Positions 4,291 to 34,490 of a stretch of 42,250 nt of DNA are shown here, piece after piece. Numbering within the stretch: the first letter of the stretch is position 1; every line of letters starts with the position of its first letter. The DNA is from an uncultured Alphaproteobacteria bacterium. Lineage in GTDB: Bacteria > Electryoneota > RPQS01. The notes beneath the pieces are model-generated. The model did not search any database. It worked only from the letters and a program-made list of their open reading frames with translations, and had not been told where the DNA came from. Location: the NCBI GenBank assembly GCA_964370805.1, contig CAYJKM010000006.1, positions 1 to 42,250 of the forward strand, in the 5' to 3' direction. The translations under genes and the position numbers were made by a program.

Positions 4291-5217
4291 ATGAATCGCT
4301 ACATCCTACTTCTTATCGCTGGGCTGTTCGCTGGCAGAATTGTTTGCGGCGCAGAGGTGTCGATCCAGTCAAACAGCACTGAATCACCATTCACGGCTGA
4401 GTATTCAGTATTTGCGAACACGATGGCAGACATGACGTGGCCGGAAATCGAGCGAGCGGTGAAAAACAACGCCGTCGTCTTACTGCCACTCGGTGTCATT
4501 GAGGAGCACGGCCCGCACATTGCCTGCGGCGCAGACGTGTATCAAGCCTATCACCAATGCCGGCTGATCAAAAGTGAACTTGAGCAGAACGGCACTCCCG
4601 CCGTCATCGTTCCCCCTTTCTATTGGGGCGTAAACTACAGCACGCGAAATTTCCCCGGTTCATTCGATATCAAGCCCGAAACGATGAAAGCGGTGCTGAA
4701 TGACATTTTACAGAACCTGCAATGCTGGGGGTTCCAAGAAGTATATGCCATCAACTGTCACGGTGAGTGGGGACATAATCAGGCGATTCTCGACTGTGTC
4801 AAAGAAGCATGGCCGAACTTCGGCATTCGCGCCCGCTGGGTGATCTCAGATCGAATGTTGCGGCGCTACAATCTTCAAGGTGACGAAGCATATCTATTAC
4901 TCGTTAACGAGGAGCCGCCCCCAGGCGGTCCTCAGATCGATGTTCCTGATTTCCACGCCGGTGCTCAGGAAACCGGAGACATGATTGCATTCTTCCCGGA
5001 TCTCGTCAACGTCGAGCTGGCTAAAACGCTTGCTGCACCGGAGGCGAAGCCAGAGGAGTACCAACACTGGGGACAGGATGCGCAAGTCGTCACGCCGCTG
5101 GGATACGCGGGGAACCCGTCCGCCTACGACGCAGAGTGGTCAAAACGGGCATTCAATGACTATTACGCACGCGTCGTCCGGGCGATCAAGGCAGCTCACG
5201 AGCAAGATCGGAAATGA
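4291..5217 (+). CDS. Creatininase / amidohydrolase family protein with predicted signal peptide
   Basis: MTWPEI, LPLGVIEEHGPH...D, NCHG, HAGxxET motifs; GGAGG RBS. Confidence 0.88.
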   Translation: MNRYILLLIAGLFAGRIVCGAEVSIQSNSTESPFTAEYSVFANTMADMTWPEIERAVKNNAVVLLPLGVIEEHGPHIACGADVYQAYHQCRLIKSELEQNGTPAVIVPPFYWGVNYSTRNFPGSFDIKPETMKAVLNDILQNLQCWGFQEVYAINCHGEWGHNQAILDCVKEAWPNFGIRARWVISDRMLRRYNLQGDEAYLLLVNEEPPPGGPQIDVPDFHAGAQETGDMIAFFPDLVNVELAKTLAAPEAKPEEYQHWGQDAQVVTPLGYAGNPSAYDAEWSKRAFNDYYARVVRAIKAAHEQDRK

Positions 5218-5282
5218 CGACATCTGTCTGGCCGGTCGTTTTCGCCAGCACACAGTACATCGTCACAAGTAGGATTTCAGAC

Positions 5283-5561
5283 ATGGACATCACCACGCTG
5301 TTCATCATTCTTACCGCTTGCTGCATCGCTTGGTACATTGTGGCATGCATTCTGATCATGAACTATCTTCTCAAAAAAGGCACGAAAATCAACTGGCTCC
5401 TTGTCAGACTGCTGATCCTTTCCTATGTGAACAGGTACAAGCAGCTTACGAACGAGGAAAGCGGAAAGACCGGCCGCTTGTTCTATCATTTTGTGATCTC
5501 AGTCAATGGAGCGCTGGTCTTTGCGATCCTCACAATCCTCTTCGCCAAAGGCATTCTATGA
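5283..5561 (+). CDS. Small membrane protein, hypothetical
   Basis: Hydrophobic segments at both ends; AGGA upstream of ATG 5283. Confidence 0.65.
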   Translation: MDITTLFIILTACCIAWYIVACILIMNYLLKKGTKINWLLVRLLILSYVNRYKQLTNEESGKTGRLFYHFVISVNGALVFAILTILFAKGIL

Positions 5562-5613
5562 TCGGCGATGGAAACTAACGCGGAGAACTTAATTCTCCAG
5601 AAGGAGGAATATC

Positions 5614-6126
5614 GTGAGAGCAGGCAGAACTATTGGTCTGGCAGTAGCGATCTACATGGCGGCTCTGCCACTGTGCGTCATGGCAAATACCGCCACTGTC
5701 GAAAAGGTTCTTCAAGGGGACCGTCTGCAAATCAAAGGCTGGGAAGTTGTCCGCCTCACCGGCATCATCGTTCCCAAGCTGGATGAGCCTTGTGGTCAGG
5801 AAGCGTGCCAGTTCACCAAACAAGAGCTGGAAGGCAAGCTTGTCGTGATGGCCACATACACTACCGATAACACTGCTGCGGGGATTGTTCGCGATGAAGA
5901 AGGACTTTGTCTGGTCCACATTGAATATGGTGGGGACTCTCTGAATGTCAGGGAGAAGACCGAAAACGCGTCTCGACGGGTGGATTTCAATGCGCTGATG
6001 ATTGAGCGGGGACTGGCACGCGTGGACGCAGATTATCTGCCCGATTGGCTGCAGCATTACAAAGAGATCGAGGAGACTGCCCGGGAGCAAGGAGTTGGCA
6101 TTTGGGCAAACCAGCCATGCCAATAG
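5614..6126 (+). CDS. Thermonuclease (SNase)-fold exported protein with degenerate active site
   Basis: VEKVLQGD, VRLTGI, GQEACQFT, NALMIERGLARV, EETAREQGVGIW; AAGGAGG RBS, GTG start. Confidence 0.8.
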   Translation: MRAGRTIGLAVAIYMAALPLCVMANTATVEKVLQGDRLQIKGWEVVRLTGIIVPKLDEPCGQEACQFTKQELEGKLVVMATYTTDNTAAGIVRDEEGLCLVHIEYGGDSLNVREKTENASRRVDFNALMIERGLARVDADYLPDWLQHYKEIEETAREQGVGIWANQPCQ

Positions 6127-8244: not shown

Positions 8245-8281
8245 CAAACCCTGAAGCGCCGCTTCAGGGTTTGCCGTTTTT
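8245..8281 (+). terminator. Rho-independent terminator after ychF
   Basis: 13-bp stem CAAACCCTGAAGC/GCTTCAGGGTTTG then CCGTTTTT. Confidence 0.75.
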
Positions 8282-8464: not shown

Positions 8465-10159
8465 ATGAACTCACGCCTTCCGAATCTCTTACTGAATAAC
8501 AACCTGCTCTCGCAGGAGCAGTTCCTGATTTTCAAGTCGCGGCAAAAGGACTCCGGCAACTCGGTGGTCACGGAGCTGGCCAAGCTCGGCGTGATCAGTG
8601 AGGATCAAATTGCGACGTTTCTTGCGTCCTATTATGATTTGCCGAAGCTCGATTTGGAACAGTCGGAGATTCCTGAGGCCGTGCGCAAGCTGCTCTCGCC
8701 GGAGTTCATTCAGCGCTATCAGGTGCTGCCGGTCAAGCGCACGGGCAAAACGCTGCAGATTGCGCTTGTCGATCCCAGCATTGATTTCGTGCTGGAAGAC
8801 ATCAAGTTTATTACCGGTTTCAACGTCCAGCCCTGCATTGTGACGGAAACGCAGTTTCTGCGCGCCATCGAGCTTTACTATCATATGGGCGGGACGCTGG
8901 ACAAGATCCTCAAAGATATTGGGGACGATCCGGGTGTGGAGTTGGTACAGACGAAGGGCGACGCGGAGATGGACAAGCTCCGCGAAGAAATCGAAGCCGC
9001 GCCGATCGTCAAGCTGCTCGATGGGATTATTGCCGACGCCGTTCAAAGGGGGGCATCGGATATTCACATTGAACCGTACGAGCAGACGCTGCGCGTCCGC
9101 TTTCGCATCGACGGTGTGCTGGCCGAGGTGATGTCGCCGCCCTATCACATGCGGAATGCGATCATCTCGCGGGCGAAGATCATGGCGAATCTCAATATCG
9201 CCGAGCGCCGCGTGCCGCAAGACGGTCACATCAAGATGAAGCTGTCGGACCGCACGATTGACTTGCGCATGTCCACCTTGCCGACTCTGTATGGCGAGAA
9301 GGTCGTGATGCGAATTCTCGATAAGTCGAACTTGACGCTCGACCTGAGTACGTTCGGATTCGAGGAGAAAGCGCTGGAAGATTTTGCCAAAGCGATTCGC
9401 GCGCCTTACGGAATGATCCTGGTGACCGGACCGACTGGTTCCGGCAAAACCACAACGTTGTACAGCTGTTTAGCCAAGCTGAACTCGCCGACCGTGAACA
9501 CGATGAGTGCGGAAGACCCCGTTGAGTACAACTTTTCGGGATTGAATCAGGTGCAAGTGCGGGATGAAGTGGGGCTGACGTTCGCCACCGCGCTCAAGGC
9601 GTTCTTGCGGCAGGACCCGGATATCATCATGATCGGCGAGATTCGCGATTTGGAGACCGGATCGATTGCCGTGCGCGCCGCGTTGACGGGTCACTTGGTG
9701 CTCTCGACCTTGCATACCAACTCGGCATCGGCGACCATTTCACGTATGACGGACATGGGAATCGAGCGCTTTCTCGTGTCATCGTCACTTACTTTGATCG
9801 TGGCGCAGCGGTTGATTCGCAAGATCTGTCCGAAATGCAAGGTGCCGGTCGAGGTTCATCCCGAGGCGCTCTGCGAAATCGGCATGGATCCGGTCAAGAA
9901 TAAGGGTCGGCTGTTTTACCACGGAGCCGGCTGCCTCGACTGCAACAACAGCGGTTATCGAGGGCGAAGCGGCATCTACGAAGTGATGCCGATCTCGCCG
10001 AAAATCCGCACCATGATTCTGGACGGCAAGTCGGCGGCCGAATTAGAGGAGACGGCCGTGGCGGAGGGCATGCTGACGCTGCGTCAAGGTGCATTGAAGA
10101 AGTTTGAGCGCGGCATAACGACCATCGAAGAAGTGCTTCGCGTGACCGGTGATTTCTAA
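8465..10159 (+). CDS. pilB: Type IV pilus assembly ATPase PilB
   Basis: ASDIHIEP, GPTGSGKTT, EDPVE, RQDPDIIMIGEIRD, TGHLVLSTLH, CPKC...CLDC tetracysteine motif. Confidence 0.96.
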   Translation: MNSRLPNLLLNNNLLSQEQFLIFKSRQKDSGNSVVTELAKLGVISEDQIATFLASYYDLPKLDLEQSEIPEAVRKLLSPEFIQRYQVLPVKRTGKTLQIALVDPSIDFVLEDIKFITGFNVQPCIVTETQFLRAIELYYHMGGTLDKILKDIGDDPGVELVQTKGDAEMDKLREEIEAAPIVKLLDGIIADAVQRGASDIHIEPYEQTLRVRFRIDGVLAEVMSPPYHMRNAIISRAKIMANLNIAERRVPQDGHIKMKLSDRTIDLRMSTLPTLYGEKVVMRILDKSNLTLDLSTFGFEEKALEDFAKAIRAPYGMILVTGPTGSGKTTTLYSCLAKLNSPTVNTMSAEDPVEYNFSGLNQVQVRDEVGLTFATALKAFLRQDPDIIMIGEIRDLETGSIAVRAALTGHLVLSTLHTNSASATISRMTDMGIERFLVSSSLTLIVAQRLIRKICPKCKVPVEVHPEALCEIGMDPVKNKGRLFYHGAGCLDCNNSGYRGRSGIYEVMPISPKIRTMILDGKSAAELEETAVAEGMLTLRQGALKKFERGITTIEEVLRVTGDF

Positions 10160-10171
10160 GTGGAGAGCAAT

Positions 10172-11083
10172 ATGAGAAGCCGTTTGTCACTTTATCTGAA
10201 CGATCTCTCGCTTGAGGAGATCCTCTATCTCGAAGAAGAACTCGAGCGACGGAAAGAAAAGTACCGCAAGCACTACGCGGTCTTGTCCGTGCAGACTGAT
10301 CCGCCGGTGCTGCGGGCGGAAAGCGCGCTGCCGCTGCAGCAATTGACCCGCGACCTGCGCCGCTACATGGGGGAATGTGCCGCCGTGGGCGCGGGAACCA
10401 TTCTGACCTATTCGCCGGAAATGTCTGTACTGCTCTTTCATTCGGTCGAGAACGCAAGCCGCACGTGCTCGGCTTTGCTCAGCGGCCTGCCGGAACTGAA
10501 CGGGCGGGCCGGCCACACCTCATACCGAGTCAATTTGAAGATGGGAATCGCCGCCGGGACGGACATCCTCGCCCCCGGCTCGCCGCGTTGCGTGCGGAAA
10601 TCCATCTTGGTGAAACGGGCTAATCAATGCGCGTGGCGAAGCGCGGCGGGCACGGTGATGATGGATGAGAACAGCTATCAGGAGTGGCCGGAGAAATTCT
10701 CGGCGGTGCGGGTGCCGGTGGAAATCGAGGGACAGCACATTTATCGTGCCGTTCCCGGGACCATCGGCCGCGACAGCGACCGCTATGACAACGAAGCGCT
10801 GAACACGTTCCTGAACAAGGTGTGCGACGCGCAGCTCGGCACGTTGAAATACGGCACGGAACGTATCGACGCGAAGGACATCGGCAGCAGCTGGGGAACG
10901 GCCGTCGATTCGCTGGAGCTGCGGCTCGAAGCCTACGATCCAAAGACGGGTAGAAACCTCAGTTACTCCGAGCGGATCGCGATCGCGGATTATTCGGATC
11001 GCATGGAGACGGTTAAACGCCTGCTAAGCGGAGTCGGACTGGCCTTAGTGCGGCATGAAACGTCGGTCACGTCCGGCGTGTGA
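10172..11083 (+). CDS. Class III nucleotidyl-cyclase-fold protein with degenerate catalytic motifs
   Basis: Pattern YAVLSVQTD...GTILTYSPEMSVLLF...LKMGIAAG...VKRANQC...AAGTVMMDENSY follows the cyclase-homology layout; GGAGAG RBS. Confidence 0.6.
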   Translation: MRSRLSLYLNDLSLEEILYLEEELERRKEKYRKHYAVLSVQTDPPVLRAESALPLQQLTRDLRRYMGECAAVGAGTILTYSPEMSVLLFHSVENASRTCSALLSGLPELNGRAGHTSYRVNLKMGIAAGTDILAPGSPRCVRKSILVKRANQCAWRSAAGTVMMDENSYQEWPEKFSAVRVPVEIEGQHIYRAVPGTIGRDSDRYDNEALNTFLNKVCDAQLGTLKYGTERIDAKDIGSSWGTAVDSLELRLEAYDPKTGRNLSYSERIAIADYSDRMETVKRLLSGVGLALVRHETSVTSGV

Positions 11084-12249: not shown

Positions 12250-13455
12250 ATGCCGGTATTCGTTTATAGTGGCCGCACCGCGGGGGCGAAGACCGTCGCC
12301 GGTGAAATTGAGGCCAAAGACAAGCAGGATGCGGTCGCCAAGCTGCGTCACCGCAAGATTGTCGTCGCCGAAGTCAAGTCCAAGCCGAAGGAAATTTCCT
12401 TTGCGGCCGGGCTGATGACCAAGGTCGGCACCAAGGACTTGAAGATTTTTGCCAGGCTGTTCGGTACGATGATCAATGCAGGTTTGCCGATTGACATGTG
12501 CCTGCAGATTCTCTCCGAGCAAACCAAGAACAAGGTGTTCCGCCGCGCCATCGCCGAGGTGCACGGGTCTGTATCCGGTGGGGCGGGGCTGGCCGAGGCC
12601 ATGTCCAAGCACAAGAAAGTGTTCGACAACCTGTTTGTGCACATGGTGGCGGCGGGCGAGACAAGCGGCGCGCTCGCGAATGTGTTCAGCCGGCTGGCCC
12701 TCTACCTGGAAAAAGCGCATGCGCTCTCGCGCAAGGTAAAAGGCGCGATGATTTACCCTGCCGTCATTGCCATGGTAGCCACCGGTGCGACCATCTTCCT
12801 TTTGATCAAGGTGATTCCAGTATTCGCCAAGATGTTCGCCGACCTGGGCGCTGAATTGCCCGGACCGACGAAGTTCGTGCTGGCGCTCTCCGACGTCGTG
12901 AGACGCACGTTCCTGCCGGGCGTGGGCTTAACGATCGTGGGGATTTTCATCTTCAAGCGCTGGCACCATACAGAGCGCGGCAAGCATACGGTGGACAAGC
13001 TGCTGCTGAAGATGCCGGTAATCGGAGGAGTGATTCGCAAGACCGCCGTCGCGCGATTTACGCGCACGCTGGGGGTGTTGATCTCGTCCGGCGTGCCCAT
13101 TCTTCAGGGACTCGACATTACCGCCAAGACGTCAGGCAACATGGTAATCCAGTACGCCATTGAGAAGGTGCGCAAGTCGATTTCCGAAGGCAAGACGATT
13201 ACCACGCCGCTCATGGAATCGGGCGTCTTTCCGGCGATGGTCGTTCAATTGGTTGCCGTGGGCGAACAGACGGGGCGACTGGCGGAGATGTTAGGAAAGA
13301 TTGCCGATTTTTATGATGAGGAAGTGGACGCGGCAGTTTCAGCGATGACGTCGCTCATTGAGCCGATCGTGATTGTGCTCATGGGCGCTGTGATCGGCGG
13401 CTTGCTGGTCTCGATGTACTTGCCGATGTTCGACATGATTGGCGCGATCAAATAG
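12250..13455 (+). CDS. pilC: Inner-membrane platform protein PilC (GspF family)
   Basis: AGETSG, KVKGAMIYP, SGVPILQGL, GEQTGRL, SLIEP, MYLPMF. Confidence 0.96.
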   Translation: MPVFVYSGRTAGAKTVAGEIEAKDKQDAVAKLRHRKIVVAEVKSKPKEISFAAGLMTKVGTKDLKIFARLFGTMINAGLPIDMCLQILSEQTKNKVFRRAIAEVHGSVSGGAGLAEAMSKHKKVFDNLFVHMVAAGETSGALANVFSRLALYLEKAHALSRKVKGAMIYPAVIAMVATGATIFLLIKVIPVFAKMFADLGAELPGPTKFVLALSDVVRRTFLPGVGLTIVGIFIFKRWHHTERGKHTVDKLLLKMPVIGGVIRKTAVARFTRTLGVLISSGVPILQGLDITAKTSGNMVIQYAIEKVRKSISEGKTITTPLMESGVFPAMVVQLVAVGEQTGRLAEMLGKIADFYDEEVDAAVSAMTSLIEPIVIVLMGAVIGGLLVSMYLPMFDMIGAIK

Positions 13456-13462
13456 GCTGTCG

Positions 13463-14998
13463 ATGCGAATCAGCTTCGAAACAGGAAAGAACTTCTCGGC
13501 CTACCTGGCAGCACGGCTCATTTTCGTGACCGTGCTGTTGGGGGTGGCGGCGATCTTTCGTCCGGCCGCAGGAAACTTGCTGACTTATTTGGCGTTGTTC
13601 GCGGCAAATTCGGCGTTAAGTTTGGGCGGTTGGGAGTGGTACCGGCAATGGCCGTCGCTCAAGCTGTTGAAAGGCGTGACACTGACACTGGCCGTGGTGC
13701 TTGACACTTTGGCGCTCTATTACACCGGCGGCGGACTGAATGTGTTCATGTTTCTGTACTTTTTCTCCGTGAGCGCGGCCGGGCTGCTCACGGGCTTCGC
13801 CGGGAGCATGTGGACTGCGCTGCTGTCCGTCGGGGGTCTGATCTGGCTGGAAGTCCAGCGCGCCGGAATGCTTCAGCCCAGCGCGCGCATGGTAATTTTC
13901 ATCTATGGGCTCAACCTGGTACTGACGGCGGCATTGGCCTCCTATCTGTTTGCCTGGTTCCGGGACCGCGAAGCGAAGCATAAGGCAACGCTCGGCGAAC
14001 TGAAGCAAATCCGGCTTGACACACAGTCAATATTGGACTCGGTGAGCGCCGGAGTCTTGGTGGTGAATGCAGACCGAGGCGTGCTGTACTCTAATCCGTC
14101 ATGCCGAATGTTGCTGGGTTTGCCGGCGGACGCACACACCGCGCAAATTGAATCGTGCCTGCAACCGGGCCGGCCATTGGGCGACGTGCTGGCACGGGCC
14201 GGCGAGTACGCGAACGGAGAATTCAATCCGCGCATTAACGGCGAGCATGAGCGCGTGCTCGGATATACGTTGTCTCCTCTGCCCGATGTACAAGGGAATG
14301 TCCGAGGTCACGTCCTGCTGCTGGCCGACTTGACTCCGATGAAAGCGGCGGAGCGAGCGGATCGTGAACGGGAGCGGTTGGCTGCCGTCGGCATGTTATC
14401 CCGCGATCTCGCGCATGAGATTCGGAATCCCCTGGCCACTGTCCGAGGCTGCGTGGAGATGATGAGGTCAGTCGGCAATGACGCCCAGGAGCGAAATCGC
14501 TTTCTCGATTTGGCATTGAAAGAGTCCGATCGATTGAACAACTTGCTTCGCGATTTCCTGACTTTTGCCAAGCTGGAGCCGGTGCGAAAGGAGCATCTGG
14601 ACTTGGCGGAGTTCGTCCGGCGTCGCCTGCCGGGCAAAGCGTCGTCATTAAAGCTGATTGATCATCTGCCCCCGTCGCTGACGGCCGAATATGACCCGGA
14701 GCAACTCGGCCTAATTATCGACGCGGTGCTGTTGTCCCTCGTGGAGTGGGCGGAAGGAGACGGAGAGGTTCAACTTGAGTCCGGCCGCAACGGCCACCAG
14801 GCGATTCGATTCCTATTGAAAGGGAAGACGATTCCGGAAGAAACCAGGAGCGCTGTTTTTCAGCCGTTTTCCGGCGTGAATCGTGCATCATTCGGTCTGG
14901 CGCTGCCGACCGCGCTGCGCGCCGTTCACGCACACGGAGGCAGTTTGACTCTGAACAGTGAGCCCGGTATTGGCACTTGGTTCGAACTAAAACTCTGA
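13463..14998 (+). CDS. pilS: PilS-like membrane sensor; H-box intact, ATP-binding domain degenerate
   Basis: About 6 TM segments, PAS-like region, LAHEIRNPL; position between pilC and pilR; N, G1 and G2 boxes altered. Confidence 0.8.
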   Translation: MRISFETGKNFSAYLAARLIFVTVLLGVAAIFRPAAGNLLTYLALFAANSALSLGGWEWYRQWPSLKLLKGVTLTLAVVLDTLALYYTGGGLNVFMFLYFFSVSAAGLLTGFAGSMWTALLSVGGLIWLEVQRAGMLQPSARMVIFIYGLNLVLTAALASYLFAWFRDREAKHKATLGELKQIRLDTQSILDSVSAGVLVVNADRGVLYSNPSCRMLLGLPADAHTAQIESCLQPGRPLGDVLARAGEYANGEFNPRINGEHERVLGYTLSPLPDVQGNVRGHVLLLADLTPMKAAERADRERERLAAVGMLSRDLAHEIRNPLATVRGCVEMMRSVGNDAQERNRFLDLALKESDRLNNLLRDFLTFAKLEPVRKEHLDLAEFVRRRLPGKASSLKLIDHLPPSLTAEYDPEQLGLIIDAVLLSLVEWAEGDGEVQLESGRNGHQAIRFLLKGKTIPEETRSAVFQPFSGVNRASFGLALPTALRAVHAHGGSLTLNSEPGIGTWFELKL

Positions 14999-15004
14999 GA
15001 TACG

Positions 15005-16369
15005 ATGAGCAAGGAACGCATCCTAATCGTTGATGATGAGCACAGCATGGGCGAGTTTCTCACGCTGGTGCTCAGCAAAGAAGGCTACCGGGTCCGGGCC
15101 GTGACATCGGGCAAACTGGCGTTGATCGTCCTGGACGAAGAGCCGTATCAATTGATGATTACCGATCTGCGCATGCCCGAGATGAGCGGACTCGATCTCG
15201 TTGCCGCCGCCCGTCGCCGCTTTCCCGAGCTGGGTGTCGTTGTCATGACAGCTTTTGCTTCACTGGAATCCGCGGTAGAGGCGCTGCGTCTGGGCGCGTC
15301 GGACTACATCACGAAGCCGTTTCAGGTGGACGAGATCCGCGTGGTTGTCGAGAAAGCGCTTGACGGCTTGAACATCCGGCGTGAAAACCGGAAGCTCAAA
15401 GAGAAGCTTGCGGCGGATGGGGTGTTGCCGGCGATCATCGGGCGATCCGAGGAAACGGCGAAACTGCTGGCGCTGATCCAGCGGGTCGCGCCGTCCGACT
15501 CGACGATTCTGATTACGGGCGAGTCCGGAACCGGCAAGGAAGTCGTCGCGCAAGTGATTCACCAAATGTCCGAGCGCGCATCCGGGGAATTTGTTACGAT
15601 TAATTGCGGCGCGCTGCCGGACACGCTCTTGGAGAGCGAACTGTTCGGTCACGTCCGCGGAAGCTTCACCGGAGCGGTGCGGGACAAAGAGGGCTTATTC
15701 AAGGTGGCCAGCGGCGGGACGTTGTTTCTGGATGAAGTTGGGGATATGTCACCGGCTCTGCAGGTGAAGCTGCTGCGTGCGTTGCAGGAACGAGAGATCC
15801 TGCCGGTGGGCGCGACCAAGCCGATCAAGATTGATGTGCGCGTGATCGCGGCGACGAATTCTGACCTCGAAAAAAAGCAGCGCGCAGGCGAATTCCGTTC
15901 GGACCTCTATTATCGGTTGTCGGTGATCCCGATCCATATCAAGGCGCTGCGCGAGCGCCGGGATGATATTCTTGATCTCAGCGAGCATTTCCTCGAACGC
16001 GCGTGCCGCCGTCATGGGGTGTCATCGAAGGTGTTGTCGGACGAAACACGGCACTTGTTCATGGCCTATTCATGGCCGGGGAACGTGCGCGAACTTGAAA
16101 ATACGATTGAACGATCGGTCATTCTGAGCGAGACGACAGTTATCGATCCTGCGGCGTTGCCCGGGAAGATCTGTTCGGCGGAGTCGAGCAGCTTTCAGAT
16201 GCGGGCGCCGGGGAGCAACGGGACACTGGAGGACATGGAGCGCAACTATCTGCTCAAGGTGTTAGAAGAGACGGGCTGGCAGAAGAAGAAGGCGTCGGAG
16301 ATTCTCGGTATCGATCCTTCAACTATCTATCGAAAGTTGCAGCGCTACGGGATTGAAGCGCCGAAGTAG
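15005..16369 (+). CDS. pilR: sigma54-dependent response regulator (PilR-like)
   Basis: Receiver DD...TDLRMP...[29 protein letters not shown], Fis HTH. Confidence 0.9.
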   Translation: MSKERILIVDDEHSMGEFLTLVLSKEGYRVRAVTSGKLALIVLDEEPYQLMITDLRMPEMSGLDLVAAARRRFPELGVVVMTAFASLESAVEALRLGASDYITKPFQVDEIRVVVEKALDGLNIRRENRKLKEKLAADGVLPAIIGRSEETAKLLALIQRVAPSDSTILITGESGTGKEVVAQVIHQMSERASGEFVTINCGALPDTLLESELFGHVRGSFTGAVRDKEGLFKVASGGTLFLDEVGDMSPALQVKLLRALQEREILPVGATKPIKIDVRVIAATNSDLEKKQRAGEFRSDLYYRLSVIPIHIKALRERRDDILDLSEHFLERACRRHGVSSKVLSDETRHLFMAYSWPGNVRELENTIERSVILSETTVIDPAALPGKICSAESSSFQMRAPGSNGTLEDMERNYLLKVLEETGWQKKKASEILGIDPSTIYRKLQRYGIEAPK

Positions 16370-17299: not shown

Positions 17300-18673
17300 A
17301 TGGGCAAAGAGAAAATTCTGGTGGTCGAAGACGAGGGTGGATATCGGAGCTTTCTGCAGCAACACCTGCAGGAACAGGGATACACGGTCGTCTCGGCCGC
17401 AGACGGCGCGTCTGCGCTTCAAGCATTCGGGGAAGACGTTTTCGATCTGGCACTCGTCGATCTGCGCCTGCCGGGCATGGACGGCGTTGATCTTTTGCGG
17501 CAGATCAAGCTTGTGAATAAAGAGACTCCGGTCATCATGATGACGGCGTACGGTTACGTCCAGAACGCCGTTCATGCGATCAAGTCCGGAGCTTACGATT
17601 ATGTGGCCAAGGAGGAGTTGACCCCGGATGTGCTGGATCTGACGGTGAGTTCGGCGCTGGAGCAGAGTCGTCTGCGTCAGGAAAACGTCCGCCTCAGATC
17701 AGAAGTCGGCACGAAGTACTCGTTCGACAACGTGGTCGGGAAGTCGGCGGCGATGCGCGATGTGCTGCAGAAGATCAAGCGAATTGCGCCCTTCAGCAGC
17801 ACGGTATTGATCACCGGTGAATCCGGGACGGGCAAGGAGGTCACTGCGCGGCTGATTCATTTGCACAGCCGCAGTCAGAATCAGCCATTTGTGACCGTGA
17901 ATTGCGCCGCCATTCCCGAGACCCTGCTTGAATCGGAGCTCTTCGGGTATGTGAAGGGCGCGTTCACCGGCGCCGTACGCACGAAGCGCGGATTATTCGA
18001 GGAAGCGAACGGGGGCACGCTGCTGTTGGACGAGATCGGCGAACTGCCGTTATCTCTTCAGGTCAAACTCTTAAGGGTTTTGCAGGAAGGGAAAATCCGG
18101 CGCTTGGGAGACGTAGCGGAGATTCACGTTGAGGTGCGCGTGATTGCGGCAACGTCACGCAATCTGGCGACTGAGGTGCAAGCCGGGCGATTCCGCGAAG
18201 ACCTGTTCTATCGCTTGAATATCATCCCGATCGTGATGCCGCCGCTGCGCGAGCGCGTGGAAGACATTCCGCTGCTCGTGCACTTCTTTCTGAAGAAGCT
18301 GAAGCGCGAGGGCGAGGTCGTCGACGTGGCGGCGGACGCGATGCAAGTATTGATGAACTACTCGTGGCCGGGCAACGTCCGCGAGCTTCAAAATATCGTC
18401 GAGCGCTCGTTAGTGCTGTCTGATTCGAGCACAATCACGGTGGACTCGCTGCCCGCCGAACTGCGGGAAGCGAATGAATTTTTCCGGGTACATATTCCCG
18501 AAGAGCAATTGAGCATCAAGCAGACTTTGTCCCAGTTGGTGCCGCGCGTGGAGCAGGAGCTGATCACGCGGGCGCTCAAGCGGACGAACAACAATCGGAC
18601 ACGGGCAGCGCGGCTGCTGGAAATTTCGCATCGCTCGCTGCTGTACAAGCTGAAAGAATATCACTGCGCATAA
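17300..18673 (+). CDS. Second sigma54-dependent response regulator (NtrC/AtoC family)
   Basis: Receiver ED...[32 protein letters not shown], Fis HTH. Confidence 0.93.
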
Positions 18674-18692: not shown

Positions 18693-21600
18693 ATGAGACG
18701 TCGTTTCATGATGAGAGTTTGGCTCCCGGCCTGCACTCTGGCAACCATGGTGTTGTGGTTCGGGTGTGAACAAAAGGGCGACATCAGCCCCACCGGTTCC
18801 AGCCGACAAGTTTTGACATTCATTGACACGGTCACGGTGGATCCGATGATTCTGGCTCCGGGCGGAACCGCGAGCGTGGAGGCGCGGATTCTCTCCGAGC
18901 TGAACGAACCGGCCGTCGGCGAAGACGTGCGGTTCAGCGTCACGCGCGGATCGCTGGCCGGTGCACATGCGGATACGACCATCCGCAGCGACAGCTTGGG
19001 GCGCGCGCGCACGACGTACACGGCTCCGGCTGATACCGGGACTGTGCTGGTGCGAACCGAATTACTAAGTATGTCGGAGCTGCGCACCACGTCGCTTTTG
19101 GTCTCCACCACCGACTCCCCGGGCGAAGGACTGCTGTCCGTCTGGAGTGATTTTGACTCCCTTTATGCGGACAACGGCACATCTTATACCCGGATTTATG
19201 CGCGGCTGCGGAACGAGCAGCACAATCCGGTGGGAGGGGTGGACATTCACTTCTCGACCACGGTCGGCACGATTACATCGCCGGTGATCACGGATGTTCT
19301 GACGGGAACCGCGGTTTCGACGCTTGTTTCTTCGACGGAGATCGGGACCGCCGTCGTCGTGGCGCGAACCGGACAGACAAGCGACACGGTTGAGGTCGTC
19401 TTCCTGACACCTGCCGAAGCGAGCCAGATCATCGTCTCGACATCCGTCCCTCAGCTGACGGCGGGTGTGGACAGCGCGATTGTGATGGCACGCGTCTTTG
19501 ATATGAACAGTCTGCCCGTCGTGGACAACACGCTCGTATTCTTCTCGACGACGCGCGGCACACTAACGGCCTTGTCCGCGCGAACGACTGACGGAGTCGC
19601 CGTGACCGTGTTGCTGGCTTCACCAAGCACGGGCGAAGCGGTGATCACGGCGACCACCGGCAATCAAGTCACGGGTCAGGCGAGCGTGCAAATCGTTCCG
19701 GGACCGGTGGCGGCGATCAGCGTCAGTGCAGATGCTGACACGATGTATGCGGACAACAGCAGCGAGACAACGATCACGGCAAATGTGGTGGATAACTTCG
19801 GCAACGGCGTGGCGCAAGGAACCCCGATCGCCTTTTCGGCGACCGGCGGCACCGTGCTGGGCAGTTCGACCGTGGGACCGAACGGTCAAGCGACAACGTC
19901 ATTCCGTGCGGGTCTTGACATCGGCCAGGCAACGATCATTGCATCCAATCTGAACATTCAAGGCAGCGTCAGCATTTATTTGCAGGGAACGCCGGCCACT
20001 TCGATTGCGTTGACGGTCAACCCGCTGGAATTGGAAGCAAACGGCACGAGCCAAGCGCAGTTACGCGCGCTGGTGCTGGACGAGCATAACCAGCCGGTGT
20101 CAAACGGGACGTCGGTGACGTTCACGTCTGAAAGTGGCGTGATCTCGGGCGGCGACGGCGGACCGAGTTCGCTTCAGCAGCGCAATCACCGCAAGGACAC
20201 GGGTGCGTGGGCGAGTGCGATCGAACGCAGTAACGTCGTCGTACCGGTCAGCTCCGATTCCAAGTATGGCCTGAGCAGCAAGCACAGCCCAATCACTTCA
20301 ACTTACACGACAGTCACAGCGGCCGGCTATGCGGTTGCGACTCTGACCAGCCCCACGACGGCTGGCGGCGATGAGATCGGTGCGGCGGTCGGCGAGCTAT
20401 CCGACGAGCAGCCGGTCAATTACGTGGCGGGCGCTCCGGCGATGATCGAAGTCACTCCGCAAGCGCAGGAGCTTCCTGCGGACGGAGTCAGCTCCACGAC
20501 GGTAAGCTGCGTGGTGACCGATGCCTTCGGCAATAACGTGGGCAGCGGCGTGGCGGTCACAGCCAGCTCGACCCTGGGAAGCCTTAACCCGATTTCCGGT
20601 TACACGAATAATAGCGGCGTGTTTGTGACGACGCTCGTGTCGTCACGGCAGCGCGGCATGTGCGCCGTAGTGGCGACAGTCGAGGGAGCAAGCGGCTATG
20701 GGGAACTTCAGTTTGTCGCTCCTGACGTCGCCGGCGTTGTCCTCGGCGCCGACCAGATCTCAATCCTTGCGAATGGTTTGTCCACGGCCATGCTGACGGC
20801 AATGGCAGTCGATCAATATGGTCTGCCGGTGAGCGGAGCCAGCGCCAATTGGCAGGTGTCTGCCGGGCCGGGAAGTCTGCTGCCGCTTTCTTCGGTCACA
20901 GATACGCTCGGCATGGTGCGAGCCCTATTCTACAGTGGAGCCTCCGAGATTGATGCTGACCAGAATGTGACGGTAACGATTGAGTCCCACAGCGACATGC
21001 GCATGATTCGCCAACTCGGCGTCAGCATGGCCGCTTGGGTGGACGACGAACAGTTGCCGGCCGACGGGAACAGCACGACTCCGGTGAACGTGCAGGTGCG
21101 TGAAACGACAAGCGGCGTCGCCATTCCGGAAGCGACGGTGCGATTCGCAGTCAACAATGGATCGATTCCGCAGACAGCCGTCACGGATGCCAGCGGCGTG
21201 GCAGTCGCGAACTATGAGAGTAGCGAAGTACCGGGAGCGGTCGAAATCAACTGCCTCTATGGCGATACGCTGCGCGCGCAAGCCGCCCTATATTTGACCG
21301 ACACAGCGGCGGATACTGTCATTGCGGCGGTGGCGCAGAATGAACTTACCGCGGACGGAGTCTCCAGCACGCTGGTGACTGCTCTGGTTTTCAATGAAGG
21401 AATGGACGTCGTTCCCAATACGCCGGTAACGTTCGAAGTTGACGGCGCGGGCTCGTTCTTCCCGGCGATTGTTTACACGAATGAAAACGGCATTGCCATT
21501 TCCACTTATCAAACGGCGGCCTTGACACAAGACGAGGAAGTCACACTGAACGTGTCCATTGAGCGCAGCAACGTGGAATCGCAGGTGATGCTGCGCGGTG

Positions 21601-24600
21601 TCAGCATGATGGCCAATTCAGTCTTGCAGGCGATGCCGGCGAATGGCACTTCGACAACTGACGTGAGTGTTGAGCTGCGGTTTGCCTCAAGCCTGGTGGC
21701 GATTTCCGGAGCCACAGTGCAATTCGGTTCGAGCTTGGGGAGTGTGCCCGCATCGGCAGTGACCGATTCCTCCGGTGTCGCTCGTGTGACGTTTACCGCC
21801 GGGACGGAAGTCGGCGTGGCGACGGTGATTGCGCGATTTGGCAACCTCTTAACCGATACGCTTTCTATTGACTTGTTTGCACCTGCTGCGAACATGCTGA
21901 GCATGGAGGCGGTGAATGCGACGCTGTTAGCTGACGGCGTCAACAGCACAATTCTGACGTCAATGGTGACGGATCAGATGGGCGCTCCGGTCAACGGAGC
22001 TGAGGTTGCGTGGACGCTGAATGGTGCGGGCTCATTGGCCAGTGCTGTGACGCTGACTGACGCCTCAGGAATGGCTGTAAATGTCTACACGGCGCCGGCG
22101 TCAAGCACGGATCAATCGAGTTCAATCCAGGCCACGGCCGGTGCAGGCTCGGACGAGATCAATGTGCAGACGTTAGGTGTGACGCTCAGTTTGAGTGTGG
22201 ATGATAATTTGCTGCCGGCAAACGGTCTCTCGATGACGCAGGTGCGCGCACAGCTTCGCGAAACCACAAGCATGGTGGCGATTCAGAACGCCGTCGTGAA
22301 CTTCGGGACGTCATTGGGTTCCGTAGCAGGAACCGTTTTGACGGATGAGGCGGGCATGGCTGTGGCGGACTTCACGACCGGCATGGAAGCCGGAACGGCC
22401 ACTATCGTCAGCCTGTACGGAAACACACTCAGCGATACCACGACGCTGCAAATGTACGTGCCGTCCGCTTCCAGTATTTCGTTGAGCCCGAGCGAGTCGA
22501 GCATTCGCGCGGATGGAGTTGCGACGATCTTCGTCACGGCAATGGTGCTGGACGAGGCCGGCGTGCCGTTGGGTCTGGCGCCGGTATCATGGGCGGTTGA
22601 AGCGGGAACGATTCAGTTTGCGCAGACAGCCACGAGTTCGGTCGGTTCGGCGACAATGACGTATCAGAGCGCGGCGTCGATGACCGATAATCCCGTGGAT
22701 ATCTCGATTACATGCGGAACCGTGACTCAGTCCACGACCGTGCTGGCAAGAGGCGTTACGGTGGACATCACGGCGGTGCCGAATATCGTGATCGCGGACG
22801 GGAATTCCACGTCGCAGATTCAGGCACATGTTTATGAGACCACGACCAACATCGCCGTCAGCGGCGAGGACGTCAGTTTCGGCACAACGCTGGGCACAAT
22901 TCCCAATTATACTACGACAAATTCGTCCGGACTGGCAGTGGTCTTGTTGACGTCCTCAACGGAAACCGGCACGGCGAATGTCACCGCAACCGTCGGCGCA
23001 GGACTCATGGATCAAACGCAAGTGACGTTTGCGCCGTCCACGCCGACTACGCTTTCGCTGACGGCGTCGCCGACGATTCTACTTGCTGACAATGTCTCCA
23101 CGTCCACATTGACGGCCGTGGTAACGGATCAGAATGGCAACCCCGTTCCTAACGGGACGCAGGTACGATTCAGTATTCCGCCGCAAAGCGGCTCGCTGGA
23201 AAACCTGCGCACGACGACTGCCGGCGTAGCAACCAACGTTTTGACGTCCAGTTCGACACCGGACACACTGACGATTGTCGCGTGGGCTGAGTCAAACTCT
23301 GAAGCGCGCGACAGCGTCACAGTTGTGTACATTGTCGGGCCGCCGTCGGTCGTGCAGTTGTCGGCGCAGAGCGATACTCTGCAGGCGAACGGAATCGCTG
23401 TGGATTCGATCACGGCGCACGTCACGGACGCGGTCGGCCATGCCTTGTCGAACGTGGAGGTGCTGTTCACGACGACCGTGGGCAACATTACCTCCAGTCG
23501 CGTGACGAACTCCAGCGGTGATGCCCGCGTGGCCTTCACGTCAGCACAAACAGGCACAGCTCTGATTACGGCAAACGCGTCGGGCGCACTTGGCTACTAC
23601 ACGGTTTACCTGATTCCGGGTGATCCCAACAGCATTCAGATGGAGTACTTCCCGAGTTCGGTCGGCGTGCGCGGCAGCGGTCGAAATGAGACATTGCTCA
23701 TTACCGCGACAGTTCGAGATGCGAACAACAATCCGGTCATTGACGGAACTCCGGTCTACTTCAATATCAACAATTCGCCGGGCGGTGGAGACTTCCTGTC
23801 CTCGTACGGCGCCATTCCGACGATCAACGGTCAGGCAAGCGTGTCCTACAACAGCGGCACGGTGTCAGGCAGCGTGCGCATCCGCGCGATCTGCGACGAC
23901 ATCACGGCCGTTTCGACGGAGATCTTGATTTACGCGGGGCCGCCGTACATTGAAGACATATCGGATGGGTGCTTGTCGAGCCACATGTCGCTGGCATCAT
24001 CGCCGTGCAACATGTTTGGAATGGACTTTGTCGGAGACTCGGTGATGCTGGTCGCACTGGTTGGCGACCGCTACAACAACCCGGTGACGCCCGGAACGGC
24101 CGTGTACTTCACGACGTCGGGCGGTGTGGTCACAACGGCGACGGGTTATACGGATTCCACCGGCTTTGCCCGAGTCACTCTGTATTCAGGTAATCCGCTG
24201 CCCACGATAGACCGCTGGTACAATACCTTGTCCGATCCCAACATGGGTGGCGCGATCCTTTGCACGTTCCCGCCGACGCAGCCGGGTGTGGCCAAGGTTT
24301 TGGCGACGTCCGCCGGTGTGGACGCCAACGGCGACAGCGTGATCGTGTGGTCGAGCACCGAAGTTATCTTCAACTATCGTGCGCCGGTACTGGCCATTCG
24401 CGAAGCAAGTGTTAATGGAGATCCGGATGAGCGCGAGTTGTTCATCGGCGAGAATGCGTTGATCACCATTGCGACATACGACCCCGACTACTGGCCGTTA
24501 GTTTACGGATCGACGCTGACGTTTTCGGCCAGCAAGGGAAATGTTTATCCCGGAACGATCACGATTGGCTGCCCCGGCGACACGACGTACACGGTGAGCT

Positions 24601-24734
24601 TCTTCAATGATCTGACCCTGAACGATGACGACGCAGCGACGCCGGTGCTGATCAGCGTGGATACCCGTCAAGGCGACGCGTACGCGTTTACCGAGACATT
24701 TACGCTGCGCGCGGCGCTGCCGGGCGGCCCCTGA
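18693..24734 (+). CDS. Giant lipoprotein with invasin/intimin-like Ig (Big_1) repeats
   Basis: Lipobox-like LWFG|C; recurring (A/P)A(D/N)GxSx(T/S)xxxAxVxDxxGNPV...VxF...G motif about every 95 aa; Thr/Ser/Val-rich. Confidence 0.85.
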   Translation: MRRRFMMRVWLPACTLATMVLWFGCEQKGDISPTGSSRQVLTFIDTVTVDPMILAPGGTASVEARILSELNEPAVGEDVRFSVTRGSLAGAHADTTIRSDSLGRARTTYTAPADTGTVLVRTELLSMSELRTTSLLVSTTDSPGEGLLSVWSDFDSLYADNGTSYTRIYARLRNEQHNPVGGVDIHFSTTVGTITSPVITDVLTGTAVSTLVSSTEIGTAVVVARTGQTSDTVEVVFLTPAEASQIIVSTSVPQLTAGVDSAIVMARVFDMNSLPVVDNTLVFFSTTRGTLTALSARTTDGVAVTVLLASPSTGEAVITATTGNQVTGQASVQIVPGPVAAISVSADADTMYADNSSETTITANVVDNFGNGVAQGTPIAFSATGGTVLGSSTVGPNGQATTSFRAGLDIGQATIIASNLNIQGSVSIYLQGTPATSIALTVNPLELEANGTSQAQLRALVLDEHNQPVSNGTSVTFTSESGVISGGDGGPSSLQQRNHRKDTGAWASAIERSNVVVPVSSDSKYGLSSKHSPITSTYTTVTAAGYAVATLTSPTTAGGDEIGAAVGELSDEQPVNYVAGAPAMIEVTPQAQELPADGVSSTTVSCVVTDAFGNNVGSGVAVTASSTLGSLNPISGYTNNSGVFVTTLVSSRQRGMCAVVATVEGASGYGELQFVAPDVAGVVLGADQISILANGLSTAMLTAMAVDQYGLPVSGASANWQVSAGPGSLLPLSSVTDTLGMVRALFYSGASEIDADQNVTVTIESHSDMRMIRQLGVSMAAWVDDEQLPADGNSTTPVNVQVRETTSGVAIPEATVRFAVNNGSIPQTAVTDASGVAVANYESSEVPGAVEINCLYGDTLRAQAALYLTDTAADTVIAAVAQNELTADGVSSTLVTALVFNEGMDVVPNTPVTFEVDGAGSFFPAIVYTNENGIAISTYQTAALTQDEEVTLNVSIERSNVESQVMLRGVSMMANSVLQAMPANGTSTTDVSVELRFASSLVAISGATVQFGSSLGSVPASAVTDSSGVARVTFTAGTEVGVATVIARFGNLLTDTLSIDLFAPAANMLSMEAVNATLLADGVNSTILTSMVTDQMGAPVNGAEVAWTLNGAGSLASAVTLTDASGMAVNVYTAPASSTDQSSSIQATAGAGSDEINVQTLGVTLSLSVDDNLLPANGLSMTQVRAQLRETTSMVAIQNAVVNFGTSLGSVAGTVLTDEAGMAVADFTTGMEAGTATIVSLYGNTLSDTTTLQMYVPSASSISLSPSESSIRADGVATIFVTAMVLDEAGVPLGLAPVSWAVEAGTIQFAQTATSSVGSATMTYQSAASMTDNPVDISITCGTVTQSTTVLARGVTVDITAVPNIVIADGNSTSQIQAHVYETTTNIAVSGEDVSFGTTLGTIPNYTTTNSSGLAVVLLTSSTETGTANVTATVGAGLMDQTQVTFAPSTPTTLSLTASPTILLADNVSTSTLTAVVTDQNGNPVPNGTQVRFSIPPQSGSLENLRTTTAGVATNVLTSSSTPDTLTIVAWAESNSEARDSVTVVYIVGPPSVVQLSAQSDTLQANGIAVDSITAHVTDAVGHALSNVEVLFTTTVGNITSSRVTNSSGDARVAFTSAQTGTALITANASGALGYYTVYLIPGDPNSIQMEYFPSSVGVRGSGRNETLLITATVRDANNNPVIDGTPVYFNINNSPGGGDFLSSYGAIPTINGQASVSYNSGTVSGSVRIRAICDDITAVSTEILIYAGPPYIEDISDGCLSSHMSLASSPCNMFGMDFVGDSVMLVALVGDRYNNPVTPGTAVYFTTSGGVVTTATGYTDSTGFARVTLYSGNPLPTIDRWYNTLSDPNMGGAILCTFPPTQPGVAKVLATSAGVDANGDSVIVWSSTEVIFNYRAPVLAIREASVNGDPDERELFIGENALITIATYDPDYWPLVYGSTLTFSASKGNVYPGTITIGCPGDTTYTVSFFNDLTLNDDDAATPVLISVDTRQGDAYAFTETFTLRAALPGGP

Positions 24735-29661: not shown

Positions 29662-30777
29662 ATGGAACTTCGTGGACTGCTCGACCTATTGTTTATCAAG
29701 AAAGCGTCAGATCTGCATTTGCGCACAGGCGCGTTGCCGGTACTGCGAATCAACGGCGAATTATTCGCCACGCGTCCGGAGAAAATTTCTACCGAGGAAA
29801 TGGATGCGTTCTTGAAAGAGATTCTGACGCCTGCCCAGCGGGATACGCTGGTGCGCGACAAAGAGCTTGATTTGGCGATCACCGTGCCGGGTTACGGGCG
29901 CACGCGCGTCAATGCATTTTACCAGCGCGGTACGGCCGCATTGGCCGTGCGCGCCATCAAGACGCAGATTCCCACGTTCGCCGAGCTCATGCTGCCGCCC
30001 GTCATGGAGCAGTTTTCGAACATGCGGCGCGGTCTGATCCTGTTCACGGGAGCGACCGGATCGGGGAAATCCACGACGATGGCGTCGCTGATCGAACATA
30101 TCAATAATCGCCGAAGCTGCAACATCTTGACCATTGAAGACCCGATTGAGTACATTTTTTCGAATAAGAAATCATTGATTGCGCAGCGCGAGGTGATGAT
30201 TGACACTCACACCTACTACGCCGCGTTGATTCACGCCTTGCGCGAGGATCCGGACATCATCATGGTCGGCGAGATCCGCGACGCGGACTCCATGATGATG
30301 GCGCTGCATGCGGCGGAAACCGGGCACCTCGTATTGACGTCGCTGCACACGTTGAACGCCGTCGAAGCGATCAACCGCATTATTTCGTTCTTCGCGCTCA
30401 ACGAGCAGGGACAGATCCGCTCGATCCTGGCGGGAACGGTACAGGCGATCGTATCACAGCGACTGGTCTCCCGCTCGGATAAGCCGGGGCGCGTGCCGCT
30501 CGTGGAATGTCTGGTCAACACGGCGGCCGTGCGCGAGTGTTTGTCGGATCCGGACAAGATGTACCTGTTGCAGAGCCTGATCGAGGACGGCAGCGCTCAC
30601 GGCATGCAGTCATTCGATCAATCGATTCTCACTCTTTACCGCAGCAATACGATCTCGTACGAAACGGCGATTGAGAGCGCGACGAATCCGAATGACCTCG
30701 AGATGGCAATTCGCGGGATCAGTTCGTCCGCCTCGAAACTAAACGCCTCGGCGGAGGCCGTGGGGCTTAGGGCATAG
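29662..30777 (+). CDS. pilU: Second retraction ATPase (PilT/PilU family)
   Basis: ASDLHL, GATGSGKST, EDPIE, REDPDIIMVGEIRD, ETGHL, GMQSFDQS; AIRNLIRE replaced by AVRECLSD. Confidence 0.8.
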   Translation: MELRGLLDLLFIKKASDLHLRTGALPVLRINGELFATRPEKISTEEMDAFLKEILTPAQRDTLVRDKELDLAITVPGYGRTRVNAFYQRGTAALAVRAIKTQIPTFAELMLPPVMEQFSNMRRGLILFTGATGSGKSTTMASLIEHINNRRSCNILTIEDPIEYIFSNKKSLIAQREVMIDTHTYYAALIHALREDPDIIMVGEIRDADSMMMALHAAETGHLVLTSLHTLNAVEAINRIISFFALNEQGQIRSILAGTVQAIVSQRLVSRSDKPGRVPLVECLVNTAAVRECLSDPDKMYLLQSLIEDGSAHGMQSFDQSILTLYRSNTISYETAIESATNPNDLEMAIRGISSSASKLNASAEAVGLRA

Positions 30778-30826
30778 TCACAGCAGCGCAACTGGATAAT
30801 GGGATTTCAGGATTGGGGAGGAGGGT

Positions 30827-31540: not shown

Positions 31541-31543
31541 TGC

Positions 31544-34480: not shown

Positions 34481-34490
34481 GGGCACAGGC

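Follow-up and report, generated by a model that had tools for sequence, protein, structure and literature searches.

A degenerate class III cyclase-fold protein encoded between the pilus motor genes pilB and pilT in a family of uncultured Electryoneota

In bacteria, the choice between extension of the type IVa pilus by PilB and its retraction by PilT is an open question. The cofactors described for the pilus motor, i.e., FimX, PilZ, the cyclic di-GMP (c-di-GMP) sites and the PATAN regulators, act mostly on PilB. Class III cyclase domains work as dimers, and some of them form pseudo-symmetric heterodimers with one dead site, as in the C1/C2 pair of mammalian adenylyl cyclase and in soluble guanylate cyclase. 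According to the available portions of two papers, FimX, a degenerate GGDEF-EAL protein, binds to PilB and stimulates the assembly of pili (PMC11656802, PMC5595344), and no cofactor with a class III cyclase fold is named in the available text of the former, a review. Here we describe a gene, designated X, in a 42,250-nucleotide stretch of DNA (hereafter the window; contig CAYJKM010000006.1 of assembly GCA_964370805.1) from an uncultured bacterium of the GTDB phylum Electryoneota. X is an open frame of 303 codons (303 aa) at positions 10172–11083 of the forward strand, with the ATG at 10172 and the TGA at 11081–11083, and it lies between pilB and pilT. With a probability of about one half, its product is a non-catalytic protein of the class III cyclase fold, a lineage-specific subunit with an accessory or regulatory role in the motor module of the type IVa pilus.

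The structure of X was modelled with AlphaFold from an alignment of 26 sequences (predicted local distance difference test score (pLDDT), 80.1; predicted template modelling score, 0.72). The model runs from a helix at residues 11–31 through a beta-alpha-beta-beta-alpha-beta domain to a second small domain. In a VIA-align (VIA) search of 48,161 representative chains, residues 31–199 matched CyaC of S. platensis (1wc1) at Z 20.0, with a root-mean-square deviation (rmsd) of 2.6 over 166 aligned residues, and the model matched CyaB of P. aeruginosa (3r5g) at Z 19.4 and Cya2 (2w01) at Z 18.7. The top 23 rows were all of the class III cyclase type, and the palms of GGDEF and Cas10 proteins came next at Z of about 10–12. 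With Foldseek, 177 PDB chains passed E ≤ 0.001, and adenylyl and guanylyl cyclases of class III headed the list (2bw7, E 1.3e-08). When the X family was aligned with 12 cyclase-homology segments by hhalign, the probability was 98.7–99.3%, with E values of 1.8e-19 in the global and 3.8e-16 in the local alignment, and in a protein atlas the clusters nearest to X had 29–33% of their members carrying PF00211. On the predicted model, the class III cyclase fold of residues 32–198 is confirmed. The hidden Markov model (HMM) of PF00211 (Guanylate_cyc) itself gave no match at E ≤ 1 for X or for any of 20 family members, and the homology is detectable only by profile-profile alignment and by weak profile matches.

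X shares its fold over residues 31–199 with the class III catalytic domains of 1wc1, 3r5g and 2w01, and a helix precedes the domain in both; the N-terminal helix of X aligns with the domain-preceding helix of distant cyclase-like relatives as well. Unlike the class III cyclases, X has all six catalytic positions replaced, a degenerate triphosphate loop and an extra C-terminal domain, and it has no sensor domain. Its arm is five residues shorter than the aligned canonical segment in the hhalign alignment. By analogy, X may resemble FimX in being a dead palm of the nucleotide-cyclase type that was recruited as a cofactor of the pilus motor, and the GGDEF domain of FimX (3hva) matched the X model at Z 10.5, with an rmsd of 3.2 over 128 aligned residues. 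X is not a member of the FimX family, however: it carries no EAL or REC domain, its gene is inside the motor operon, and its similarity to class III domains (Z 20) exceeds that to GGDEF domains (about 10). A GGDEF identity was also rejected more generally, because these domains gave Z 9.8–11.5 over 124–137 residues as against 15–20 for class III, the hairpin reads S-P-E, and there was no Pfam GGDEF match. The Pycsar pyrimidine cyclases (7r65, 8jsf, 8jsz) have a class III-type fold too, with Z 15.4–16.9 to X. A Pycsar or other defence identity was dismissed, since no PADLOC family matched at E ≤ 1, the neighbours are pilB and pilT in an operon of housekeeping pilus genes, no effector gene adjoins, and the catalytic residues are absent.

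The canonical catalytic residues were located in X by the hhalign alignment, in which S39-V40-Q41-T42 falls on F-x-D-I, P82-E83 on G-D, and K148-R149-A150-N151-Q152 on N-x-A-x-R. An earlier note, made from the DNA letters, had proposed that X follows the class III pattern with the degenerate motifs SVQT, PE and KRANQ; all three motif readings proved exact in the profile-profile alignment, and the structure searches of the predicted model (Foldseek, and VIA at Z 20.0) bore out the class III assignment. The six canonical positions correspond to Q41, T79, E83, V141, K148 and Q152, and none of the six keeps its identity. Q41 stands in place of the first metal Asp, and T79 in place of the substrate Lys. 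V141 is presumably the base-specifying position, by the rule of seven residues before the Asn, which we adopted from the mammalian enzyme. The 20 species compared have Q (18), L (one) or H (one) at position 41, a variable residue at position 79 (A in 14 of the 20), V, L, I or M at position 141, K (eight), R (nine), P (two) or T (one) at position 148, and Q (14), H (two), G (two), R (one) or E (one) at position 152. The second metal-acid feature is retained in part, in that position 83 is acidic in every species (E in 15, D in five), preceded by an invariant P82 where G is canonical. The triphosphate loop, G-F/S-T in true cyclases, reads D-P-P, D-R-P or E-Q-K in the X family. Because both the catalytic positions and the triphosphate loop have been replaced, the canonical catalytic machinery of X is gone.

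Other residues are conserved instead. P82, K123, R139, R142, S144, D165 and W172 are invariant in the 20 species, and D131, S137 and R149 are each present in all but one. The family-specific conserved residues cluster in the arm loop and at the start of helix 4, and the arm motif at residues 129–156 is G-x-D-x-L-A-x-G-S-x-R-x-x-R-x-S-x-L-V-x-R-A. The mean identity was highest in the N-terminal segment (69%), followed by the arm (67.5%), and lowest in the C-terminal domain (41%). The arm block at residues 131–140 was modelled at low confidence (pLDDT 58). The arm motif is also kept in two short forms of the family, P0067 (208 aa) and P0068 (218 aa), which both have no C-terminal domain; the short-form locus is L011, positions 5158–5781, in genome G052. 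Their sequences give a hint that they resemble less degenerate relatives, and that the dead site of the main family may have arisen stepwise.

The C-terminal part of X, residues 199–303 (105 aa), has the order alpha-beta-beta-beta-alpha-beta in the model, and reached a pLDDT of 75.6 when it was folded alone. Foldseek gave nothing at E ≤ 0.001 for this part, the best hit being a COMMD ring at E 0.016, and the best VIA match was SRP14 (Z 7.6, rmsd 3.6, 76 aligned residues). Neither was accepted as a relative, because the scores are within the range of common arrangements, and no family was assigned. There was no usable match in the protein atlas, and an exhaustive profile search of 1.84 billion representative proteins found this domain only in the X family. 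As far as the model can tell, the C-terminal domain is without a clear structural relative. Thus, what had been noticed as an unexplained C-terminal region of about 110 aa is a separate 105-aa domain with no clear known fold in Foldseek or VIA.

Neither the X protein alone nor its profile gave anything relevant against Pfam, NCBIfam, PADLOC or the PDB sequences; matches to RRM_MARF1 (0.054) and a RelB-like family (0.14) were dismissed as far below the cut-offs. A word-indexed search found 60 homologues of about 300 aa with 47–84% identity, all unnamed or hypothetical, and a few of the records are labelled candidate division KSB1 or Calditrichota. In the exhaustive profile search, 33 proteins were obtained at E ≤ 0.001. 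Members of the X family accounted for 21 of them, comprising four full-length clusters, fragments and the two short forms, and the other 12 were weak matches (E 3.5e-07 to 9.2e-04). PF00211 is carried by five of these 12, and one of the weak matches, P0088, matches the PDB cyclase 3mr7 at 2.1e-07. No longer homologue, i.e., no fused form of X, was present among 7999 scored candidates of 532–2000 aa, which is weak evidence. With neither a Pfam nor an NCBIfam model, the X family is an unannotated protein family. The absence of such matches, together with the class III fold, also led us to discard X as a cofactor of the PilZ, FimX, MshEN or PATAN type.

Outside the X family, the nearest sequence relatives are P0083, P0085, P0088 and the second domain of P0081. 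In this cyclase-like subfamily both metal Asp residues are intact and an Asp replaces the transition-state Asn (V-I-D-R-A-A); most members have no Pfam match, and some of these domains are located behind membrane segments. A likeness between the N-termini of X and PilB (M-x-S-R-L...L; 10172–10216 against 8465–8509) was considered and rejected. Their first 15 residues share 3–7 identities in register in 20 species pairs, and the alignment scores were not above those of shuffled sequences, 120 to 1907 of 2000 shuffles reaching the score. The PilB stretch at 8465–8509 is the start of an MshEN-type motif.

The distribution of X was surveyed with the family profile in 79 species genomes of the phylum. 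X was found in all 24 genomes of the GTDB family to which the window belongs (the window counted), in one of six genomes of the sister family, and in none of the 49 others. The sister-family carrier has the 208-aa short form in the same slot between pilB and pilT (L011). X occurs as a single copy per genome, and the X profile detected no paralogue in any of them; two matches on two small contigs of G069 are the halves of one gene, and what looks like a 217-residue form in G068 results from truncation at the end of a contig. In a set of genome contigs, pilB precedes X at 12 of 12 loci, and pilT follows X at all 11 loci that reach far enough. Similarly, in each of 20 species genomes that were fetched separately, pilB, X and pilT directly follow one another on the same strand. 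The spacers were measured in 19 of these, leaving out L035 with its contig-truncated pilB, and were −4 to 15 nt between pilB and X and 2 to 36 nt between X and pilT. All 21 of 21 genomes have kept the slot and the tight spacing, over a range of 40–76% protein identity. Three sister genomes, two from the same order and one from the same class, have ychF-pilB-pilT-pilC without X, and their pilB-pilT spacers (about 40–215 nt) contained no remnant of X, as tblastn gave matches at chance level only (best E 0.085). Since the sister genomes have the cluster without X and without a remnant, X is a lineage-specific insertion into an otherwise standard motor operon of the Myxococcus/Geobacter type.

The ratio of nonsynonymous to synonymous substitution rates (dN/dS), roughly estimated for five species pairs, was 0.06–0.17 for X (computable in four) and 0.01–0.07 for PilB and PilT. 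By this comparison of coding sequences, X is under purifying selection, and because it is also full length in every genome of the lineage, it is a real gene rather than a chance open frame. The motor proteins were compared as well. PilT has six positions that are fixed in 20 carriers of X and differently fixed in the three sisters without X, namely S136C in the Walker A loop, Q214S, V239I, V279M, Q312R and R349K; that is 6 of 370 positions, as against 1 of 564 in PilB (E111D). As only three outgroup genomes were available, this excess in PilT is no more than a lead, and the differences may reflect shared ancestry only.

Because X combines a dead fold with a conserved arm loop and helix, a C-terminal domain of its own and a fixed slot between two antagonistic motors, we favor the role of a motor accessory. 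X would be expressed from a pilB-X-pilT-pilC operon, as a protein built of the conserved N-terminal helix, the degenerate cyclase homology domain and the small family-specific C-terminal domain, and it would probably be a homodimer, by analogy with all solved class III domains. Its leading helix resembles the one that stands ahead of dimeric cyclase domains. Its functional site would probably be the invariant arm loop, which is rich in Arg and Ser (D131, S137, R139, R142, S144, R149), together with K123. This loop, placed where the base-specifying and transition-state residues of the canonical enzymes are found, would have a motor component or an anionic ligand as its binding partner, and would thereby bias extension against retraction. 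We infer the inactivity, the dimerization and the contact with PilB, PilT or the platform, and the function as a motor adaptor is read from the gene context alone. A co-fold of PilB (564 aa) and X (303 aa), made without controls, gave ipSAE values of 0.00 and 0.00 and a mark of 0.32, which bears on binding in neither direction. A more elaborate scheme, which we regard as rather doubtful, would make X a new kind of regulator, in which an Arg-rich cleft at the interface of the dimeric dead cyclase binds a small anionic signal or an acidic segment of the motor; the C-terminal domains would attach to the hexamer of PilB or PilT or to the PilC/PilM platform, so that X chooses the engaged motor. If this scheme is true, the lineage has inserted a ligand-gated switch between extension and retraction physically between the two motor genes; the excess of fixed changes would then weakly point to PilT as the partner.

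Several points weigh against a motor accessory. The 12 loci and the 20 genomes overlap and are kin, and therefore are not independent observations; all of the genomes are metagenome bins, and the bin of the window is 65.6% complete. The dN/dS values are rough, because dS exceeds 1 in all pairs and is saturated, and in the fifth pair the values of X and PilT were not computable. The position of a gene is weak evidence for the putative physical link of X to the pilus proteins. Acidic residues stand near the canonical metal site in all 20 species, at positions 43 (D in 11, E in nine) and 83, and with the invariant K123 they leave room for metal or nucleotide binding, or for catalysis by migrated residues. 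In both short forms, P0067 and P0068, the first metal position is still Asp (V-L-A-M-D), and P0068 has the P-E as well. Finally, the divergent full-length protein P0061 has A83 and E142, so that the "invariant" site is not universal.

These residues bear directly on two other explanations. One of them overlaps with ours and makes ligand binding the core of the mechanism: X would be a receptor, in which the degenerate dimer pocket binds ATP, a cyclic nucleoside monophosphate, c-di-GMP or guanosine tetraphosphate without turnover and signals to the motors. The acids at 43 and 83 and the basic K123, R139 and R142, kept in all 20 species, suit such a pocket, and the low confidence of the arm loop in the monomer fits a site that becomes ordered on binding. 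In addition, a P. aeruginosa protein deposited as a "class III adenylyl cyclase-like ATP-binding protein" (6yii), with the cyclase fold but called ATP-binding rather than cyclase by its depositors, matches X at Z 14.7, with an rmsd of 3.0 over 162 aligned residues. This protein ranks below the true cyclases as a match, its 473-residue chain has another architecture, and we know of no link between it and pilus genes. On the other hand, the loop that holds the triphosphate by backbone amides is replaced in X by the proline-containing or variable D-P-P, D-R-P and E-Q-K, positions 79 and 141, where the base is specified in canonical enzymes, carry hydrophobic or variable residues, and P0061 has neither E83 nor R142. 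We consider a receptor of this kind unlikely. It is much less likely still that X is an active, very divergent nucleotidyl cyclase or transferase, in which D/E43 and E/D83 act as metal ligands, K123 and the arm arginines serve the phosphate and the transition state, and a local signal is made at the pilus base. Two acidic and several basic residues are indeed conserved near the canonical site, the short forms keep the first metal Asp, and catalytic residues of pseudoenzymes can migrate, as the accessible part of a review warns (PMC10211241). Nevertheless, the loss of identity at all six canonical residues and the failure of all 20 members to reach PF00211 at E ≤ 1 speak against activity. Neither of the transition-state positions, 148 and 152, is conserved, and the wider family shares no consistent pair of acids: in P0067, D41 is combined with H-L-G at the hairpin, and P0061 carries A83.

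The earlier note had read X as an inactive cyclase fold acting either as a motor adaptor or, by heterodimerization, as a regulator of an active cyclase. The inactive fold was supported (Z 20.0, none of six residues kept), and the regulator of a cyclase was disfavored. Degenerate sites of the cyclase fold are used for regulation in mammalian C1/C2 (1cs4, Z 18.7) and in soluble guanylate cyclase (3uvj, Z 16.6), both among the fold matches of X, but there they pair with an active half, and 20 of the 24 genomes that carry X have no match to a canonical cyclase. PF00211 was detected at E ≤ 0.001 in four of the 24 carriers, over the cut-off in three of the 24, and in one of the 14 genomes of at least 90% completeness; among 14 control genomes, four gave a match in this search. 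There was no PF00211 match in the bin of the window (65.6% complete), and the X profile found X alone in each genome. As only four carriers have PF00211 and there is no paralogue, a conserved active cyclase partner is unlikely, and heterodimeric regulation is hardly credible. It is also improbable, though less so than an active or a partnered cyclase, that X is unrelated to pili, its gene having inserted between pilB and pilT in some ancestor and being retained for another function, with the operon used for expression only. Such a passenger would agree with the putative rather than demonstrated nature of the binding, with the dN/dS of X, 2.4 to 5 times that of the motors, and with the sister lineages that have the cluster without X. 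However, a slot that has stayed unchanged with its tight spacing in 21 of 21 genomes, the short form in the same slot in the sister family, the lack of a copy elsewhere in any genome and the lack of a match to defence-system models are not expected of it.

Under the preferred explanation of X as a non-catalytic subunit of the motor module, a whole bacterial family has fixed the gene of a dead signalling enzyme exactly between two motor genes. If X binds the motor, it would be the first pseudoenzyme of the class III cyclase fold in a pilus machine, as far as our searches show; it would parallel the degenerate GGDEF of FimX, and would offer a compact system for studies of motor switching. The interest is limited in that the hosts of X are uncultured sediment bacteria, and in that motor binding is a property we infer only. 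In the literature available to the search, much of it in partial text, no paper was found on a protein of the cyclase fold encoded between pilB and pilT. Pseudo-cyclases as a concept, like the fold, are already known, and the X family, its C-terminal domain and its setting in a pilus motor operon are undescribed in that literature.

The features of the locus are collected in Table 1. The coordinates of X and its spacings, 12 nt from pilB and 28 nt from pilT, were exact in the earlier note. The start of X was assigned to the ATG at 10172 and not to the GTG at 10160, because all homologues begin with MRSRL or MSSR, and the start of pilT at 11112 was set by aligning 20 orthologues. A strong terminator-like hairpin at 8245–8273, with a 13-bp stem followed by a T run, is located between ychF and pilB, and likely marks where the pilB-X-pilT-pilC transcription unit begins; no terminator-like site was found on the plus strand inside pilB, X, pilT or pilC. 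No RNA dataset containing this stretch was listed, and the rows that contain it are five sediment metagenome DNA rows from two studies, one of which may be the sample of origin.

Table 1. Positions of X, its segments and the neighboring pilus genes in the window
Feature	Position	Strand	Basis or remark
pilB, type IVa pilus extension ATPase, 564 aa	8465..10159	+	Pfam T2SSE 2.3e-143, MshEN 1e-21
pilB-X spacer, 12 nt	10160..10171	+	GGAG present, Shine-Dalgarno-like; read from sequence
X, pseudo-cyclase gene, 303 aa (stop included)	10172..11083	+	Open reading frame, homologues, dN/dS
X residues 1-31, conserved peptide MRSRL and long helix 11-31 leading into the cyclase domain	10172..10264	+	Model, identity
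X residues 32-198, degenerate class III cyclase homology domain	10265..10765	+	VIA, Foldseek, hhalign
X residues 129-156, arm loop with the start of the following helix, conserved within the family	10556..10639	+	Alignment across 20 species
X residues 199-303, C-terminal domain	10766..11080	+	Separate folding, structure searches
pilT, retraction ATPase, 370 aa	11112..12224	+	Pfam T2SSE 4.4e-49; 28 nt 3' of the X TGA
pilC	12250..13455	+	Pfam T2SSF 4.9e-61
pilS-like PAS histidine kinase	13439..14998	+	HisKA, HATPase_c, PAS
pilR-like sigma-54 activator	15005..16369	+	Sigma54_activat 3.9e-71 with Response_reg

Further pilus genes are present downstream in the window. A second PilT-like ATPase (29662–30777; T2SSE 2.2e-43) is followed by a DUF4388 protein (30827–31540) and by a protein in which an MshEN domain and a DnaA-type AAA ATPase are joined (31544–32959). 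DUF4388 may be, as we assume, the PATAN domain of pilus-motor regulators, and the region 29662–32959 has the look of another module that regulates this pilus. PilM and PilN appear to be fused in one frame of 599 aa at 34413–36212 (PilM_2, 7.7e-52, residues 36–371; PilN, 5.9e-10, residues 481–557), and PilO, an unassigned frame of 190 aa and the PilQ secretin are encoded 3' of it. A second sigma-54 response regulator (17300–18673) lies just before a gene for a protein of 2013 aa (18693–24734), which has 11 Big_1 and six invasin-D3 repeats and is located inside the pilus cluster. This protein is possibly an adhesin that is co-regulated with the pilus.

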